From a virus (lineage: Duplodnaviria > Caudoviricetes), in IMG/VR virus record IMGVR_UViG_3300037461_000157, positions 1-31,228 of that record: 31,228 bases of DNA, one strand, 5' to 3'. Each line of letters begins with the position of its first letter. Within the stretch, counting starts at the first letter, position 1. Positions 12,766-28,371 of the stretch are shown one piece after another. The notes under the pieces were generated by a model, which had not been told where the DNA came from, searched no databases, and saw nothing but the letters and a program-made list of their open reading frames with translations. A program made the position numbers and the translations under genes.

Positions 12766-13019
12766 AGCTGATGCGGATCACGGGCTGGACGGTGCCCGAG
12801 CTGCGGGCCGCGCCCGCCCGCGTGGTCCGCGCGCACTTCCTCCGCATCTTCGTCGGGCTCGCGTGGAACCCGGCACTAGCCGAGGCTGCCGCGGGGCCAC
12901 CTCCCCCTCGCGGCAACTTCGGCTCCATCGGTGACTACGCCGAGGCGAGGCGCGCGAAGGCGCGGGCCGTGGAGGCGCAACAGGTCATCGAACGGGCGCT
13001 CTGGCCGGAGGACGACTGA
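12678..13019 (+). CDS. gpT-like C-terminal part of the frameshifted chaperone (G-T fusion ~231 aa, 12325-13019)
   Basis: LMRITGWTVPELRAAP is typical of gpT segments; reached by a -1 shift. Confidence 0.8.
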   Translation, partial: RVWRSISSLATGERLCEPDDPTAREAYEVELMRITGWTVPELRAAPARVVRAHFLRIFVGLAWNPALAEAAAGPPPPRGNFGSIGDYAEARRAKARAVEAQQVIERALWPEDD

Positions 13020-18116: not shown

Positions 18117-18316
18117 TGGGAGACGCACCGCAGACGCCACTCCGCCAGATCCGTCTCGCCGCAGGGCTAACCTTGCGCGAGGTCGCGCGACGGAGCGGGG
18201 TCAACCCTGGGCGGCTGTCCATCATCGAACGGGGCGTGCCGCCGACCATCGACGAGGCCAGCCGCATCCTTGCGGCGCTCCAGGTCGAGGTCGTCCCAAA
18301 GGGAGACGCCGCATGA
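18116..18316 (+). CDS. XRE-family HTH regulator (Cro-like)
   Basis: LRQIRLAAGLTLREVARRSGV....LSIIERG HTH_3 signature; first gene of the early operon. Confidence 0.9.
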   Translation: MGDAPQTPLRQIRLAAGLTLREVARRSGVNPGRLSIIERGVPPTIDEASRILAALQVEVVPKGDAA

Positions 18317-24142: not shown

Positions 24143-24352
24143 CGGTCAGAAGCCCCGCACCATCCGGCGGGTCGTCTCCTGGTTCTCGCGCATCGTCCGG
24201 TCCTGGAGGGCTCGGTACTCAGCGGCGGCCTTGCGGTCGGCATCGGCTGCGGCGCGCATTCGGGCTTCCGTCGTGGTCGGGGTCTGCTCGGTGGTCTTCA
24301 TGCCAGCAATCTACACGGTAGCGCGCAGTTTGTCAAGTGGGCAATCGCATGA
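23963..24352 (+). CDS. Possible filler ORF antisense to the leftward cassette (129 aa)
   Basis: Starts by ATGA overlap with the methylase stop and ends by ATGA overlap with the next + gene; protein looks like a shadow translation. Confidence 0.35.
   Translation: MTTPRTPQRLGAVALDLARRDDPRLPDERGAQPSVADLRTQSGGRHPEGCARLSECDLAHRSEAPHHPAGRLLVLAHRPVLEGSVLSGGLAVGIGCGAHSGFRRGRGLLGGLHASNLHGSAQFVKWAIA
24146..24301 (-). CDS. Small helical protein (51 aa, MKTTEQTPTTTEARMRAAADADRKAAAEYRALQDRTMRENQETTRRMVRGF; not in the ORF track)
   Basis: Leaderless ATG 6 nt after a -10 box; GC3-biased codons; stop 3 nt before the HTH_17 start. Confidence 0.75.
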   Translation of the reverse strand: MKTTEQTPTTTEARMRAAADADRKAAAEYRALQDRTMRENQETTRRMVRGF

Positions 24353-24723
24353 CCGCCCTCGTCGCCGCGGCCATGCTCGCCGACCTCCTCACCTTCGCCG
24401 CCGTCATCGAAACCGTCGGCATCGGCGCCGAGCAGAACCCCGTCATGGCGAGCGGCTACACCCAGGGCGGCATCGTCGCCGTCGCCGCCCTCAAGCTCAC
24501 CGCCCTCGCCGCCATCGTCCTGCTCGTCGCCCGCGTCCGCCGTCCCCGGCTGCGCGTCCTCGCGGCGGGCATCGCCATCGTCGTCGGCGTGACGGGCGCC
24601 GCGAGCAACGTCACCGCCTGGGCGCAGACGTCGGGACAGGGCAACCCGGCAGCGGGCGGAGCAGGTGCGGCGGTCGCTGCGGGACCGGCCGAGGTCGATC
24701 CCGCAGTTGACGCATCGGCTCAT
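24298..24723 (-). CDS. C4 zinc-finger protein with C-terminal tail antisense to a membrane-protein gene
   Basis: CVNCG...RSDRRTCSARCRVALSRR; ATG directly follows the upstream TAG; stop overlaps the ATG at 24301. Confidence 0.65.
   Translation of the reverse strand: MSRCVNCGIDLGRSRSDRRTCSARCRVALSRRLRPGGDVARGARHADDDGDARREDAQPGTADAGDEQDDGGEGGELEGGDGDDAALGVAARHDGVLLGADADGFDDGGEGEEVGEHGRGDEGGHAIAHLTNCALPCRLLA
24301..24336 (-). promoter_or_regulatory. Leftward sigma70-type promoter, leaderless transcript
   Basis: Minus strand TTGACA(24336-24331)-17 bp-TAGATT(24313-24308)-6 bp-ATG(24301). Confidence 0.85.
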
Positions 24724-25758
24724 CTACTCGCCCTCGGGGACCGGACCCCACTGCTCCAGCCATTTGCCGGTGCGGCGGTAGTAGCGGAGGCGGACAGCGT
24801 CGTTGCGAGCCTGCCGCCGGTCCTCTCGAGCCGCGGACCACTCGGGATGGGCCTTGTCGGCGGCCGTCCAGAGCCGCAGGGCGCGGGCGCGAGCGGCCTT
24901 CCTGGTCGAGTGCTCGACGACGCGGACCGGCTTCCACTGCGTGACCTTGGCCGTGCCGGACCGGGCGCCTGGGCCGTAGGGCTGGTAGATGCCGCTCGCG
25001 TACTTGCCTTCGGCGAGCGTCTCGGTTGTCCAGAAGAACATCGCGCCGTCTGGCGACTGCCAGTAGCGGTAGCGCGGTTGGCGAGCGGGCGTGAACAGGG
25101 CACGGAGTGTCGGGTCGCTGTTGACGAAGCTCGCGAGGTCCTCTTGGAACGATGCCATGGCGTCTCCCTTCTGTTGCGGTTGTCTACACTAAGCGTAACA
25201 CCACTGTCAAATCTACATGCAAGTCTGCACCGGTCGTCGGCGGCAGCTTCGACTCCCCGAGCTGCGCTGGAGAGCATCCCGGCTGTCTCCCGGCCGGTTG
25301 GGCAGGTCACCCTCGATGATCCAGCGCAGCTCGGGCAGCCGGACCAAGCGAAAGCGGTCATCCCGGCGCCCGACGACCGGCCCAAGGGTCCCGGTCGGAT
25401 CACACCACCTCGGCCGGCGATCGGGATACGGCCCGCGCCGACCGAGGAGCCCCGCACCGCGCTAGTCCTGCGGGGCATCGCTTCCTTCGTCGGCCCCGGC
25501 TACGGGCCGCGCTACCTCGCCCTGCCGGACGGCCCCGGCGTCACCGTGTACATCTGCGGCCCCGTGGCGTGCGTGGTGCGGACCTCGACCGACGCCGGAC
25601 CCGACCTCGCCATGCAGCGTGCCGGCCGCGTGGCCGACCTGTCGTTCGCGGACTTCCGGCGAGTCTGCGGCTGTGACCCGTGGGCCGTGGGGCTGGTCCG
25701 CGTCACCGTCGCGCCCATCCCCGCCCCGCCCGTGACCAGCACGAAGGAGACGCCATGA
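24349..25758 (+). CDS. Membrane protein (DUF5658-like, 3 TM) joined in frame to a C-terminal RlpA-like double-psi beta-barrel
   Basis: N-terminal ADLLT...AEQNPVM...LK and three hydrophobic helices; C-terminal G.AS...ALP.G.G..V.IC...TDAGP...RVADLS..DF...GLVRV; ~280-aa linker between them. Confidence 0.6.
   Translation: MTALVAAAMLADLLTFAAVIETVGIGAEQNPVMASGYTQGGIVAVAALKLTALAAIVLLVARVRRPRLRVLAAGIAIVVGVTGAASNVTAWAQTSGQGNPAAGGAGAAVAAGPAEVDPAVDASAHLLALGDRTPLLQPFAGAAVVAEADSVVASLPPVLSSRGPLGMGLVGGRPEPQGAGASGLPGRVLDDADRLPLRDLGRAGPGAWAVGLVDAARVLAFGERLGCPEEHRAVWRLPVAVARLASGREQGTECRVAVDEAREVLLERCHGVSLLLRLSTLSVTPLSNLHASLHRSSAAASTPRAALESIPAVSRPVGQVTLDDPAQLGQPDQAKAVIPAPDDRPKGPGRITPPRPAIGIRPAPTEEPRTALVLRGIASFVGPGYGPRYLALPDGPGVTVYICGPVACVVRTSTDAGPDLAMQRAGRVADLSFADFRRVCGCDPWAVGLVRVTVAPIPAPPVTSTKETP
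24724..25158 (-). CDS. Hypothetical protein (144 aa), first gene of the leftward unit
   Basis: GAAGGGAG RBS; aromatic-rich, natural-looking sequence; GC3-biased codons on the minus strand. Confidence 0.8.
   Translation of the reverse strand: MASFQEDLASFVNSDPTLRALFTPARQPRYRYWQSPDGAMFFWTTETLAEGKYASGIYQPYGPGARSGTAKVTQWKPVRVVEHSTRKAARARALRLWTAADKAHPEWSAAREDRRQARNDAVRLRYYRRTGKWLEQWGPVPEGE
25181..25210 (-). promoter_or_regulatory. Probable leftward promoter
   Basis: TTGACA(25210-25205)-18 bp-TAGACA in an AT-rich island; shares GTGTAGA with the 24336 promoter; imperfect -10. Confidence 0.55.
25230..25380 (+). ncRNA. Unclassified structured RNA element (multi-way junction)
   Basis: Nested perfect inverted repeats 25230-25240/25370-25380 (11 bp) and 25256-25271/25320-25335 (16 bp), plus a GC-GAAA-GC capped hairpin 25338-25367. 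Confidence 0.6.
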
Positions 25759-26391: not shown

Positions 26392-26696
26392 CTGGATCGT
26401 GTATTCACGGCATCCCGTGGGACGCTGGCTGCACGCTCTGTGGCCGGAACACCCTACCGGGGGTCAACCTCTACAACACGACTTGCGTCCACGGCCTCGA
26501 CCTTCGGCTGGTGCCGCGCTGCTACCTCTGCAAGCCCGAACTCGACTTGTCGGCTGTCGTCTCGGGGACGGACTACACCGATCTCCTGCTCCTGATCGCA
26601 GAGTGCCTCGTGGTACTCGCATGGAGGGCAGAACCGGATGCCGGGGCGCGTCAGTCGCGGCTGCACGCGATCCGTGCCGCGAAGGAGACGCCATGA
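26388..26696 (+). CDS. Hypothetical protein with two CxHG..CxxC motifs
   Basis: GGAGG RBS; CIHG...CTLC and CVHG...CYLC. Confidence 0.65.
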   Translation: MTGSCIHGIPWDAGCTLCGRNTLPGVNLYNTTCVHGLDLRLVPRCYLCKPELDLSAVVSGTDYTDLLLLIAECLVVLAWRAEPDAGARQSRLHAIRAAKETP

Positions 26697-26818
26697 CCCG
26701 CCTCGACCGTTGCCGGATCGGGAAGCACATCTGGCAGCCGTGGACCCGGACGGACGGCACCGAGAGCGGCTGGTGGTGGTGCTTCCGTTGCCATGCCACG
26801 AGCGAGGGGACGCCATGA
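26693..26818 (+). CDS. 41-aa zinc-finger-like protein
   Basis: AAGGAG RBS; C..GKHIW...CFRC; ATGA overlaps at both ends. Confidence 0.65.
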   Translation: MTRLDRCRIGKHIWQPWTRTDGTESGWWWCFRCHATSEGTP

Positions 26819-27096: not shown

Positions 27097-27512
27097 CCGA
27101 CGACCCCGCGGTCCTCACGCCGCTGGAGGTCGGCCGCATCCTGCGCGTCTCGGACGTGACCGTGCGCCGGATGATCACCCGCGGCGTCCTGCCGCGCATC
27201 GCCGGGGTCCGGGTCGTGCTCATCCCGCGCCGCGCCGTCGACCGCCTTCTTTTGGGAGAGTACGATTGGCAATCCGATGAGCCGAGAGAAAGGCACCGGG
27301 ACGATCGTCCCGACGAAGACGCCGGCCGGGGCGGATCGCTGGCGGATCGCCGTGACGATGGCGGACGGCCGGCGAGTCTGGCGGACTGCGAAGAGCCCGA
27401 AGGAAGCCGAGCGCATCCGCAAGGCGCTCGTCGACGCCCGCGAGCTCGACCTCGACCCCACGCGGCAGACCCTCGCGGACTACCTCCGGTCATGGATCGG
27501 GAGCCTGCGTGA
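27093..27512 (+). CDS. xis: Excisionase / recombination directionality factor (HTH_17)
   Basis: GTG start; VLTPLEVGRILRVSDVTVRRMITRGVLP...VLIPRRAVDRLL; immediately upstream of int; frame runs 236 nt into int. Confidence 0.75.
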   Translation: MTDDPAVLTPLEVGRILRVSDVTVRRMITRGVLPRIAGVRVVLIPRRAVDRLLLGEYDWQSDEPRERHRDDRPDEDAGRGGSLADRRDDGGRPASLADCEEPEGSRAHPQGARRRPRARPRPHAADPRGLPPVMDREPA

Positions 27513-28371
27513 TGGCCGTCGCGTCCGTCCCCGGACGGTGGAGTCCTACGCGATGATCGTCGAGCGGCACATCGTCCCGGCGCTCGGCGGATACAAGCTC
27601 GCCGCTATCACCCCGCGCCGCATCCAGGGCTGGATCGACGCGCATCCCGGCGCCCCGCGCACCGTCCTGCTCCACCATGCCGTCCTGCGTCGCGCCCTCG
27701 GAGTGGCCGTCCGCCAGCGGCTCTTGCCGTGGAACCCGGCGATGGCCGTCGACCTCCCCCGCCCGCGCACCGACGTGGCCCGGCCCCTGACGCTCGAGGA
27801 AGCCCACCGACTGCTCACCGCCACCAGCGGCGACCGGTTGCACGCGCTCTGGCGGCTGGCGATCGTCACCGGCCTGCGGGAGAGCGAGCTGCTCGGCCTC
27901 GCGTGGGACGACGTGGGCGGCGCGACGATCACGGTCGGCCACCAGCTCCAGCGCATCGGTCGGGCGTGGGCCCGCGTCGCGCCCAAGGCGGCTCGCACCC
28001 TGACCCGCGTGGCGCTCGACCCCGCTACAAGCATGGTTCTCGAGGCTCATCGCCTGCGGATGGCCGGGGAGCGGACGCCTGAGTGGACGTACTTCGGCCT
28101 GGTCTTCGTCACCGAGCGCGGGCAGCCGTTCCACCGGCCCATGATCCTGCGCGAGTTCCACGCGGCCTGCGACGCGGCCGGGATCGAGCGGCGACGGTTT
28201 CACGACATCCGACACAGCACGGCGCACCTGATGAACGACCTCGGCGTGGACGAGAAGACGCGGATGGCCCGGCTCGGCCACTCGACGGTGAGCATGAGCC
28301 GCCACTACAGCGGCGCCAGCGAGGCGCAGGACCGGCTGGCGGTGGAGAGGTTGGGGGAGGCGCTGGGATGA
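27277..28371 (+). CDS. int: Tyrosine integrase
   Basis: TGLRESELLGL (R), FHDIRH (HxxR), RLGH, SRHY (Y); SAM-like N-terminal domain. Confidence 0.96.
   Translation: MSREKGTGTIVPTKTPAGADRWRIAVTMADGRRVWRTAKSPKEAERIRKALVDARELDLDPTRQTLADYLRSWIGSLRDGRRVRPRTVESYAMIVERHIVPALGGYKLAAITPRRIQGWIDAHPGAPRTVLLHHAVLRRALGVAVRQRLLPWNPAMAVDLPRPRTDVARPLTLEEAHRLLTATSGDRLHALWRLAIVTGLRESELLGLAWDDVGGATITVGHQLQRIGRAWARVAPKAARTLTRVALDPATSMVLEAHRLRMAGERTPEWTYFGLVFVTERGQPFHRPMILREFHAACDAAGIERRRFHDIRHSTAHLMNDLGVDEKTRMARLGHSTVSMSRHYSGASEAQDRLAVERLGEALG

Follow-up and report, generated by a model that had tools for sequence, protein, structure and literature searches.

The C4 antisense RNAs of phages P1 and P7 and the CI RNA of phage P4 are structured segments of phage early transcripts that overlap small ORFs and are released by RNase P, an enzyme that a retained tRNA elbow suits; in these RNAs a middle segment can pair either to its left or to its right. 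Palindromic DNA of about 150 nt, as in Rickettsia palindromic elements, REP sequences and MITEs, is tolerated in frame within genes. RNase III, according to PMC5371410 and PMC11780869, cuts inside coding regions and can stabilize processed transcripts, and the former source treats its proximal and distal boxes as weak predictors. The put element of phage HK022, as described in PMC9378689 (and summarized in PMC12360218), is about 70 nt long, consists of two stem-loops with critical conserved residues and lies after early promoters in early operons; conAn2 is intergenic and needs a protein (PMC8191782); and GOLLD is a phage-linked structured non-coding RNA of 700–800 nt able to hold a tRNA (PMC12990946).

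The DNA analysed here (the window) is the whole 31,228-base record of a temperate phage, in which a family scan of 49 of 199 ORFs recovered terminase, portal, capsid, tail, exonuclease, methyltransferase, excisionase-like and tyrosine integrase genes. Its host is probably a member of the Chloroflexota: one homologue bears the name Candidatus Limnocylindrales, and two genome bins of Chloroflexia point the same way. As originally predicted, a structured segment lies inside an open plus-strand frame (24337-25758) just before an RlpA-like domain. We found its conserved unit to be an array of five hairpins, P2–P6 (about 25256-25476), situated in a Pro/Ala linker with a DUF5658 anchor on one side and a DPBB (RlpA/expansin-fold) domain on the other. 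The features referred to below are:

24298..24723, minus strand: ORF starting with a small four-cysteine segment, in the cassette (seen in translation; similar ORF in locus L018)
24349..24620, plus strand: DUF5658 membrane anchor, 5′ part of the gene (Pfam PF18902, 26.4 bits, cut-off 25.2)
24621..25241, minus strand: inserted leftward cassette, 621 nt or 207 codons, with the plus frame open throughout; junctions uncertain by 3 nt
24724..25158, minus strand: cassette ORF of 144 aa, no family found, with an upstream ribosome-binding site; one contig of run X3 skips 24727-25163
25182..25211, minus strand: probable leftward cassette promoter (perfect -35, 18-nt spacer, weak -10)
25230..25240, plus strand: 5′ arm of P1, private to this allele, which pairs with 25370-25380 and competes with P4
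25247..25255, plus strand: left segment including TTCGACT, which can extend P2 by pairing with the 5′ strand of P3
25256..25335, plus strand: P2, a 16-bp perfect stem with an exchangeable branched interior
25333..25371, plus strand: P3 (25333-25342/25363-25371, one bulged A), directly abutting P2, with a variable interior that contains the private GAAA insertion here
25374..25397, plus strand: P4, originally described as an alternative pairing
25408..25447, plus strand: P5 (alignment and fold)
25449..25476, plus strand: P6, ending on the first codon of the folded domain; two-sided changes in 6/8 pairs
25474..25758, plus strand: double-psi beta-barrel (RlpA/expansin-like) domain and stop (AlphaFold pLDDT about 95; Foldseek)
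27277..28371, plus strand: tyrosine integrase downstream of the array (PHROG 1 and 66), preceded by an excisionase-like gene

By analogy, the array would function most like a nuclease site embedded in an mRNA, and it fully matches none of the systems compared. With RNase III processing stems it shares a long, near-perfect intramolecular helix of free sequence (16 bp and perfect in the window), but here it belongs to an ordered set of five hairpins, with interiors that can be exchanged, in a translated linker, and cleavage is a prediction. Like the C4 and CI RNAs, it would be a structured part of a phage early transcript with a middle segment able to pair to either side; it gave no C4-type match in Rfam, no conserved loops matching targets were found, and in the window it lacks a cloverleaf. 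Like put, EAR and conAn2, it would be a cis structure in an early or long operon with two abutting stem-loops; however, P2 alone spans 43–109 nt with unrelated interiors, at odds with the length and critical residues given for put in PMC9378689. In contrast to GOLLD, it is without an Rfam match, is read in frame and, where it holds a cloverleaf, lacks the normal anticodon arm. Unlike REP sequences, MITEs and Rickettsia elements, it is single-copy, always in the linker of this gene type and not dispersed: in 301 genomes of the probable host order the pattern gave 4 matches against 4 for the control, and an array model found 0 in 151 genomes, which included no positive control. No MITE match, which would have spoken against the originally proposed novelty, emerged, the window holding a single copy and neither phage nor host dispersed ones.

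The absence of a known family was likewise borne out, the Rfam 15 covariance models giving 0 matches in the window at E up to 1; in 35 related loci tRNA alone passed the threshold and no family accounted for the array. A group II intron domain V or self-splicing intron was rejected, the GAAA loop being a private insertion, the lengths keeping frame and Rfam giving no match. For a retron ncRNA, P1 is not conserved and no RT was present among the 49 of 199 ORFs scanned, flanking ones included. One motif scan of viral contigs returned 121 loci, none with a downstream DPBB-family frame and none with a convincing P2; a second returned 6 loci in unrelated genes; and others recovered known contigs only (L253, L256; L092) or nothing. 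We found no description of the array in the literature, of which the PMC10690425 supplements were covered in part, so that a listing there is possible; in three of its six listed files, five contig identifiers and the term 'RlpA' had no match. The DNA-virus arm of that large viral RNA screen, according to PMC10690425, began by removing predicted coding regions, and intergenic screens would therefore skip this family.

Within the window, P2 is the longest of 31 perfect repeats (at least 10 bp, within 300 nt), the next reaching 12 bp. The original prediction had drawn a unit of about 150 nt in which P1 encloses P2: both P1 (25230-25240/25370-25380, 11 bp) and P2 (25256-25271/25320-25335, 16 bp) are indeed perfect inverted repeats, and the inner stems, P3, the GAAA hairpin and the alternative pairing are all present in the sequence. 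Its boundary at 25397 falls short, the element continuing to 25476. Taken without the cassette arm, 25243-25480 folds into five hairpins in which the minimum-energy and centroid structures coincide (z -4.1 on the plus and -3.3 on the minus strand, against shuffles). The originally drawn interval, 25225-25400, also folds beyond shuffled controls, as anticipated, with z -3.0 (+) and -4.5 (-); contrary to the proposed preference for the plus strand, it folds better on the minus. As the 170-nt window at 25230 ranks only 11th of 207 genome-wide, folding energy alone is not exceptional. The 170-nt windows at 12780, 8730, 7680, 28830 and 22380, with z from -3.7 to -4.5 (14 shuffles), are stronger than that of the element. 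No spacer separates P2 from P3. The alternative fold extending P2 is weak (121/180 cells Watson-Crick; shuffle mean 108, maximum 119), and TTCGACT, once likened to a T-loop, has no closing T-stem and varies among relatives.

Comparison of relatives established that P2–P6 are maintained by compensatory changes while their interiors are replaced. A sequence-only alignment of seven close loci has 91.8% of 196 cells paired in P3, P5 and P6, with two-sided changes in 12 of 28 pairs, a level of pairing reached by 0 of 500 shuffles and compared with 32–51% in slid controls, the structure having been derived from these same sequences, two of them nearly identical. P4 is the local minimum-energy hairpin in all seven aligned loci and forms there with changed pairs; what had been read as a mutually exclusive alternative thus exists, but as a conserved member of the array. 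Across 20 more distant loci, P2 is Watson-Crick in 218 of 240 cells over 12 positions, using all four pair types (shuffle maximum 146), and P3 in 147 of 160 with a further 9 G-U (shuffle maximum 121), counts inflated because the loci were picked for showing the array and anchored by best pairing; L038, L017 and L090 were dropped for failed anchoring or a different junction. A blind anchor search placed 14 distinct loci of the phage family above the highest-scoring of 28 host loci; the window, with its bulged A, reached 24, below the host maximum of 25. Covariation among homologues is strong for P2–P6; neither P1 nor the GAAA loop is conserved. The structure is real, under selection and uncatalogued. 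Many members of the gene family lack a long linker and several with a long linker lack the array, which is accordingly dispensable.

A control for coding composition is provided by the probable host order, in which 162 of 301 genomes match, nearly all with a single weaker-scoring paralogue of the same anchor-linker-domain plan. The linker of this paralogue (L223-L252), present in about half of the genomes searched, is conserved at the protein level. Median linker-folding z was -2.4 in 32 phage-family loci, hand-picked for long linkers with and without the array, versus -0.84 in 23 of the 29 paralogue loci fetched (p=0.0025). A perfect stem of at least 10 bp occurs in 15/32 phage-family linkers versus 3/23 host ones, and linker stems number 42 against 18.3 in shuffles for the phages and 15 against 14.8 for the hosts. 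A fixed 210-nt window, which cut P2 in many loci, weakened the contrast (medians -1.6 versus -0.7; z below -2 in 15/33 versus 3/23). GC-rich Pro/Ala coding thus fails to explain the array, since the host paralogue linker is not unusually structured.

All loci carrying the array retain an open frame up to the domain, and P2 spans fall in one length class modulo 3 in 16 of 20 loci (p=2.5 × 10–5, with loci that are not independent and five lengths re-anchored). The 3′ strand of P3 is read in the window in another frame than in L010 and L011, the frame being regained by P4. We infer that the linker is translated but tolerates almost any amino-acid sequence, which leaves its bases free to encode RNA structure as well; it is predicted to be a floppy, disordered spacer of a membrane protein. 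The element is a dual-coding, uncatalogued hairpin array, larger than, and distinct from, the unit first drawn. Keeping the frame in register argues against the free-standing sRNA gene once suggested. A translational switch, another early suggestion, is unlikely, as the stems in the window cover neither a start codon nor a ribosome-binding site.

The domain at the end of the frame has 138 homologues and matches expansin D1 and PA4485 in Foldseek (E 1e-4 to 7e-4); a Pfam search with it gave no match, a DPBB_1 lead from the Atlas covers 13% of one cluster, and no relative was found among GenBank phages. Homologues run from a hydrophobic anchor through a Pro/Ala linker, or none, to the domain. 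L011 and L253 show the uninterrupted form of the window gene, with the DUF5658 anchor fused directly to the linker and then the domain, while in L253 and L256 a linker of the window's type precedes a domain from another DPBB subfamily. The domain tree, poorly resolved and used solely for this point, likewise indicates that linker and domain do not travel together. L018 carries two DPBB genes of different subfamilies 1 kb apart on one contig (7-549 and 1551-2333). Linker-less forms (L002, L042, L067, L084, L087) adjoin lysis-type genes, unlike the long forms, with an endolysin match in L087.

The interiors of P2 and P3 are unrelated between phages and change much faster than the flanks. Rfam detected an in-frame, plus-strand tRNA cloverleaf inside P3 in 2 of the 35 loci scanned, L028 (51.7 bits; 233-301) and L058 (38.6 bits; 126-221), with compensatory changes between the two and with D- and T-loop residues kept. 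Both lack the 7-nt anticodon loop, the arm being deleted or replaced: L028 has a 2-nt loop and L058 a long extension. L043, whose domain is nearly identical to that of L028, retains the flanking stem only. An attP remnant was rejected as the source of these inserts, the best host matches (to L028) being 74–75% identical and their status as tRNA genes unconfirmed. In the window neither ARAGORN (0) nor Rfam (0) found a tRNA; a relaxed ARAGORN scan, too noisy to use, gave a tRNA-like candidate at L038 455-532 that is a lead only. A shared 60-nt module, which may contain a covarying pseudoknot and has no Rfam match, lies in P2 of L024 and L092 and after P3 in L051 and L055.

Evidence on the active strand is mixed, the cloverleaves and the G-U pairs of P3–P6 favouring plus while P2 and the pooled stems do not. 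G-U outnumbers A-C by 9 to 2 in P3 of the 20 loci and by 8 to 3 in P3, P5 and P6 of the aligned ones, whereas the non-Watson-Crick cells of P2 comprise 9 A-C (six at one position) against 3 G-U, and all linker stems together 12 A-C against 9 G-T. Long-linker genes sit among replication and early genes, often just ahead of xis-int; the order seen in the window recurs in L028, L043 and L086, and an integrase also lies downstream in L096, L225 and L003 (serine type in the last). Counting distinct loci with at least 1.2 kb of downstream flank, an integrase follows in 6/14 array loci versus 0/34 without the array after L064 and L062, duplicate array-bearing loci, were regrouped (5/12 versus 1/36 before), an association resting on related, partly duplicated contigs; L027, without an array and excluded for its short flank, also has xis-int downstream. 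A consensus scan of the window found no rightward promoter. Several early genes are preceded by a start motif (purine-rich site, GACGCC, start codon) resembling a start-associated sequence, at 25745-25757, 26683-26695, 26805-26817, 25156-25170 (-) and 18300-18315.

The P1 arm has a separate origin. Among the four DNA runs compared, a single contig of a close relative, from run X7 (depth 5.9, aligned at 80% likeness), joins 24620 to 25242; since it skips 621 nt, the window carries an inserted cassette to which the 5′ arm of P1 belongs. Also missing from this relative are 11 nt surrounding the GAAA loop and a single base, 25373, in the 3′ arm of P1; it has several small indels, yet 240 window bases match 252 of its own, a multiple of 3. 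Six other aligned loci also lack the GAAA insertion, which removes that loop as a feature of the family. Eighteen other loci show no conservation of a closing helix like P1, since pairing with the own partner (-13.0 kcal/mol) scarcely differs from that with swapped partners (-12.7). An open frame is in itself weak evidence, because antisense frames in register frequently stay open in this genome (0.61 for 178 codons); the in-frame lengths add support. L018 has a related cassette, likewise in frame, and the same promoter motif abuts the array in L018 and L007 (in L007 at the contig start, just before the array). Leftward cassettes of a promoter and a small gene insert at the 5′ edge of the array while the plus frame stays open, at 24621-25241 in the window and about 1690-1940 in L018. 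The four-cysteine segment is putatively zinc-ribbon-like. A near-palindromic 9-nt motif, a possible operator, lies within the promoter spacer of all three loci, the window, L018 and L007 (1-25). The leftward promoter of the original prediction is probable, given its perfect -35, but its -10 is weak and the consensus scan missed it, reporting 24336-24308 only. That site belongs to a second leftward promoter (10/12 consensus matches) in the block 24150-24336, with a small ORF and an excisionase-like HTH gene under its control; as X3 contigs leave the block out, it is another optional cassette.

We favour, with a probability of roughly 0.4, a dual-coding, cis-acting mRNA processing or stability element in an early operon, frequently upstream of xis-int. 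Once the segment is free of ribosomes, host RNase III would cut the long P2 stem, and in relatives with a tRNA elbow in P3, RNase P would cut there. Cutting would halt synthesis of the anchored DPBB protein, and the downstream fragment, still capped by the P3/P4–P6 hairpins, would govern the level of the early genes that come next, in many cases xis and int; for the window, the private P1 arm from the cassette is predicted to displace P4. This reading is favoured because a long stem of free sequence suits RNase III, an elbow suits RNase P, the probable hosts have RNase III and there are documented precedents: the first 12 positions of P2 are almost fully paired with free sequence, as for a dsRNA nuclease that reads shape, and RNase III is encoded in 3/3 probable host genomes, the host itself being an inference. 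The long RNase III-like processing stem among the original suggestions therefore survives at this tentative level, although its unit was wrongly drawn. The array might instead act on transcription, either as a put- or EAR-like RNA-only antiterminator formed by P2–P3 or by shielding a C-rich, slowly translated linker from Rho and so allowing read-through to xis-int. The spacer-free abutment of P2 and P3, the two stem-loops of put in early operons (PMC9378689), the position of the gene in a replication/early operon and the presence of Rho in 3/3 probable hosts all fit, and any stable fold would suffice for shielding, which would explain the free exchange of interiors. Neither role, however, needs a kept tRNA elbow; put has a size and sequence-critical residues, according to PMC9378689, that P2 does not share; and phage linkers do not differ from host ones in C-over-G skew or unpaired C content (0.071 versus 0.082, p=0.23), on which ground Rho-site masking by composition was rejected. 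We consider an action on transcription possible but somewhat doubtful.

That the hairpins matter as DNA, as cruciforms or single-stranded folds, or arise by template switching and mark a cassette-swap recombination junction, with the RNA fold as a by-product, is doubtful. The stems are near-perfectly Watson-Crick without an overall strand preference, three loci have a cassette with a shared promoter motif next to the 5′ edge, breaks between assembly contigs fall at 25246-25250 and 25344, L253 and L256 combine this linker with another DPBB subfamily, and the perfect private P1 resembles a copying event; yet plus-strand cloverleaves with kept loop residues, tolerance of G-U in P3–P6, the lack of an excess of long perfect repeats elsewhere in the genome and the fixed order of five hairpins across divergent phages all speak against it. 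A translated RNA scaffold, in which the disordered linker would accept interchangeable folded RNA payloads, among them tRNA mimics lacking an anticodon, freed by host RNase III or RNase P as trans decoys or regulators while still coding, is unlikely. About as unlikely is an array that would be a carrier excised from the mRNA, its variable interiors, such as tRNA mimics and other folded modules, acting in trans either as decoys of host defences that sense RNA or target tRNA or as antisense to phage ribosome-binding sites. Rapid change of the interiors relative to the flanks is expected here but also fits relaxed constraint; the anticodon-altered cloverleaves are just 74–75% like their best host matches, and one module occupies P2 in L024/L092 and the stretch after P3 in L051/L055, but tRNA occurs in only two of the Rfam-scanned linkers. 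The P2 apex of the window is complementary to the start motif at four early genes, but these duplexes (-12.3 to -16.2 kcal/mol) straddle the random-site 5th percentile (-15.1), and an anti-Shine-Dalgarno sRNA was rejected as pairing within background. The discrete P1-closed RNA of the original prediction, in which the GNRA loop would be functional and P1 and P4 would form a switch, whether as an sRNA, a ribozyme or a translational switch, is highly improbable. P1 is predicted here at a probability near 1, excluding P4, and a chance 11-bp match at exactly this place is unlikely; against this, the nearest relative lacks P1 and GAAA, neither is conserved, Rfam offers no ribozyme or sRNA match, and neither a rightward promoter nor a start codon under the stems was found. 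As a family-level description this unit is largely refuted.

The array represents an uncatalogued structured-RNA family and illustrates that a protein linker of free sequence can accommodate RNA of ordered and modular build, a tRNA cloverleaf included, with its frame unbroken. Should it act in processing or antitermination upstream of xis-int, it would be a candidate lysis-lysogeny control point in phages of a barely studied soil and sediment lineage. The locus L007 shows a further arrangement: behind the array (254-488), another frame contains a nested 73-aa ORF that has a ribosome-binding site of its own, and the stop of this ORF overlaps a TTG that may start an anchor-less DPBB domain, such that the array may there be a leader.
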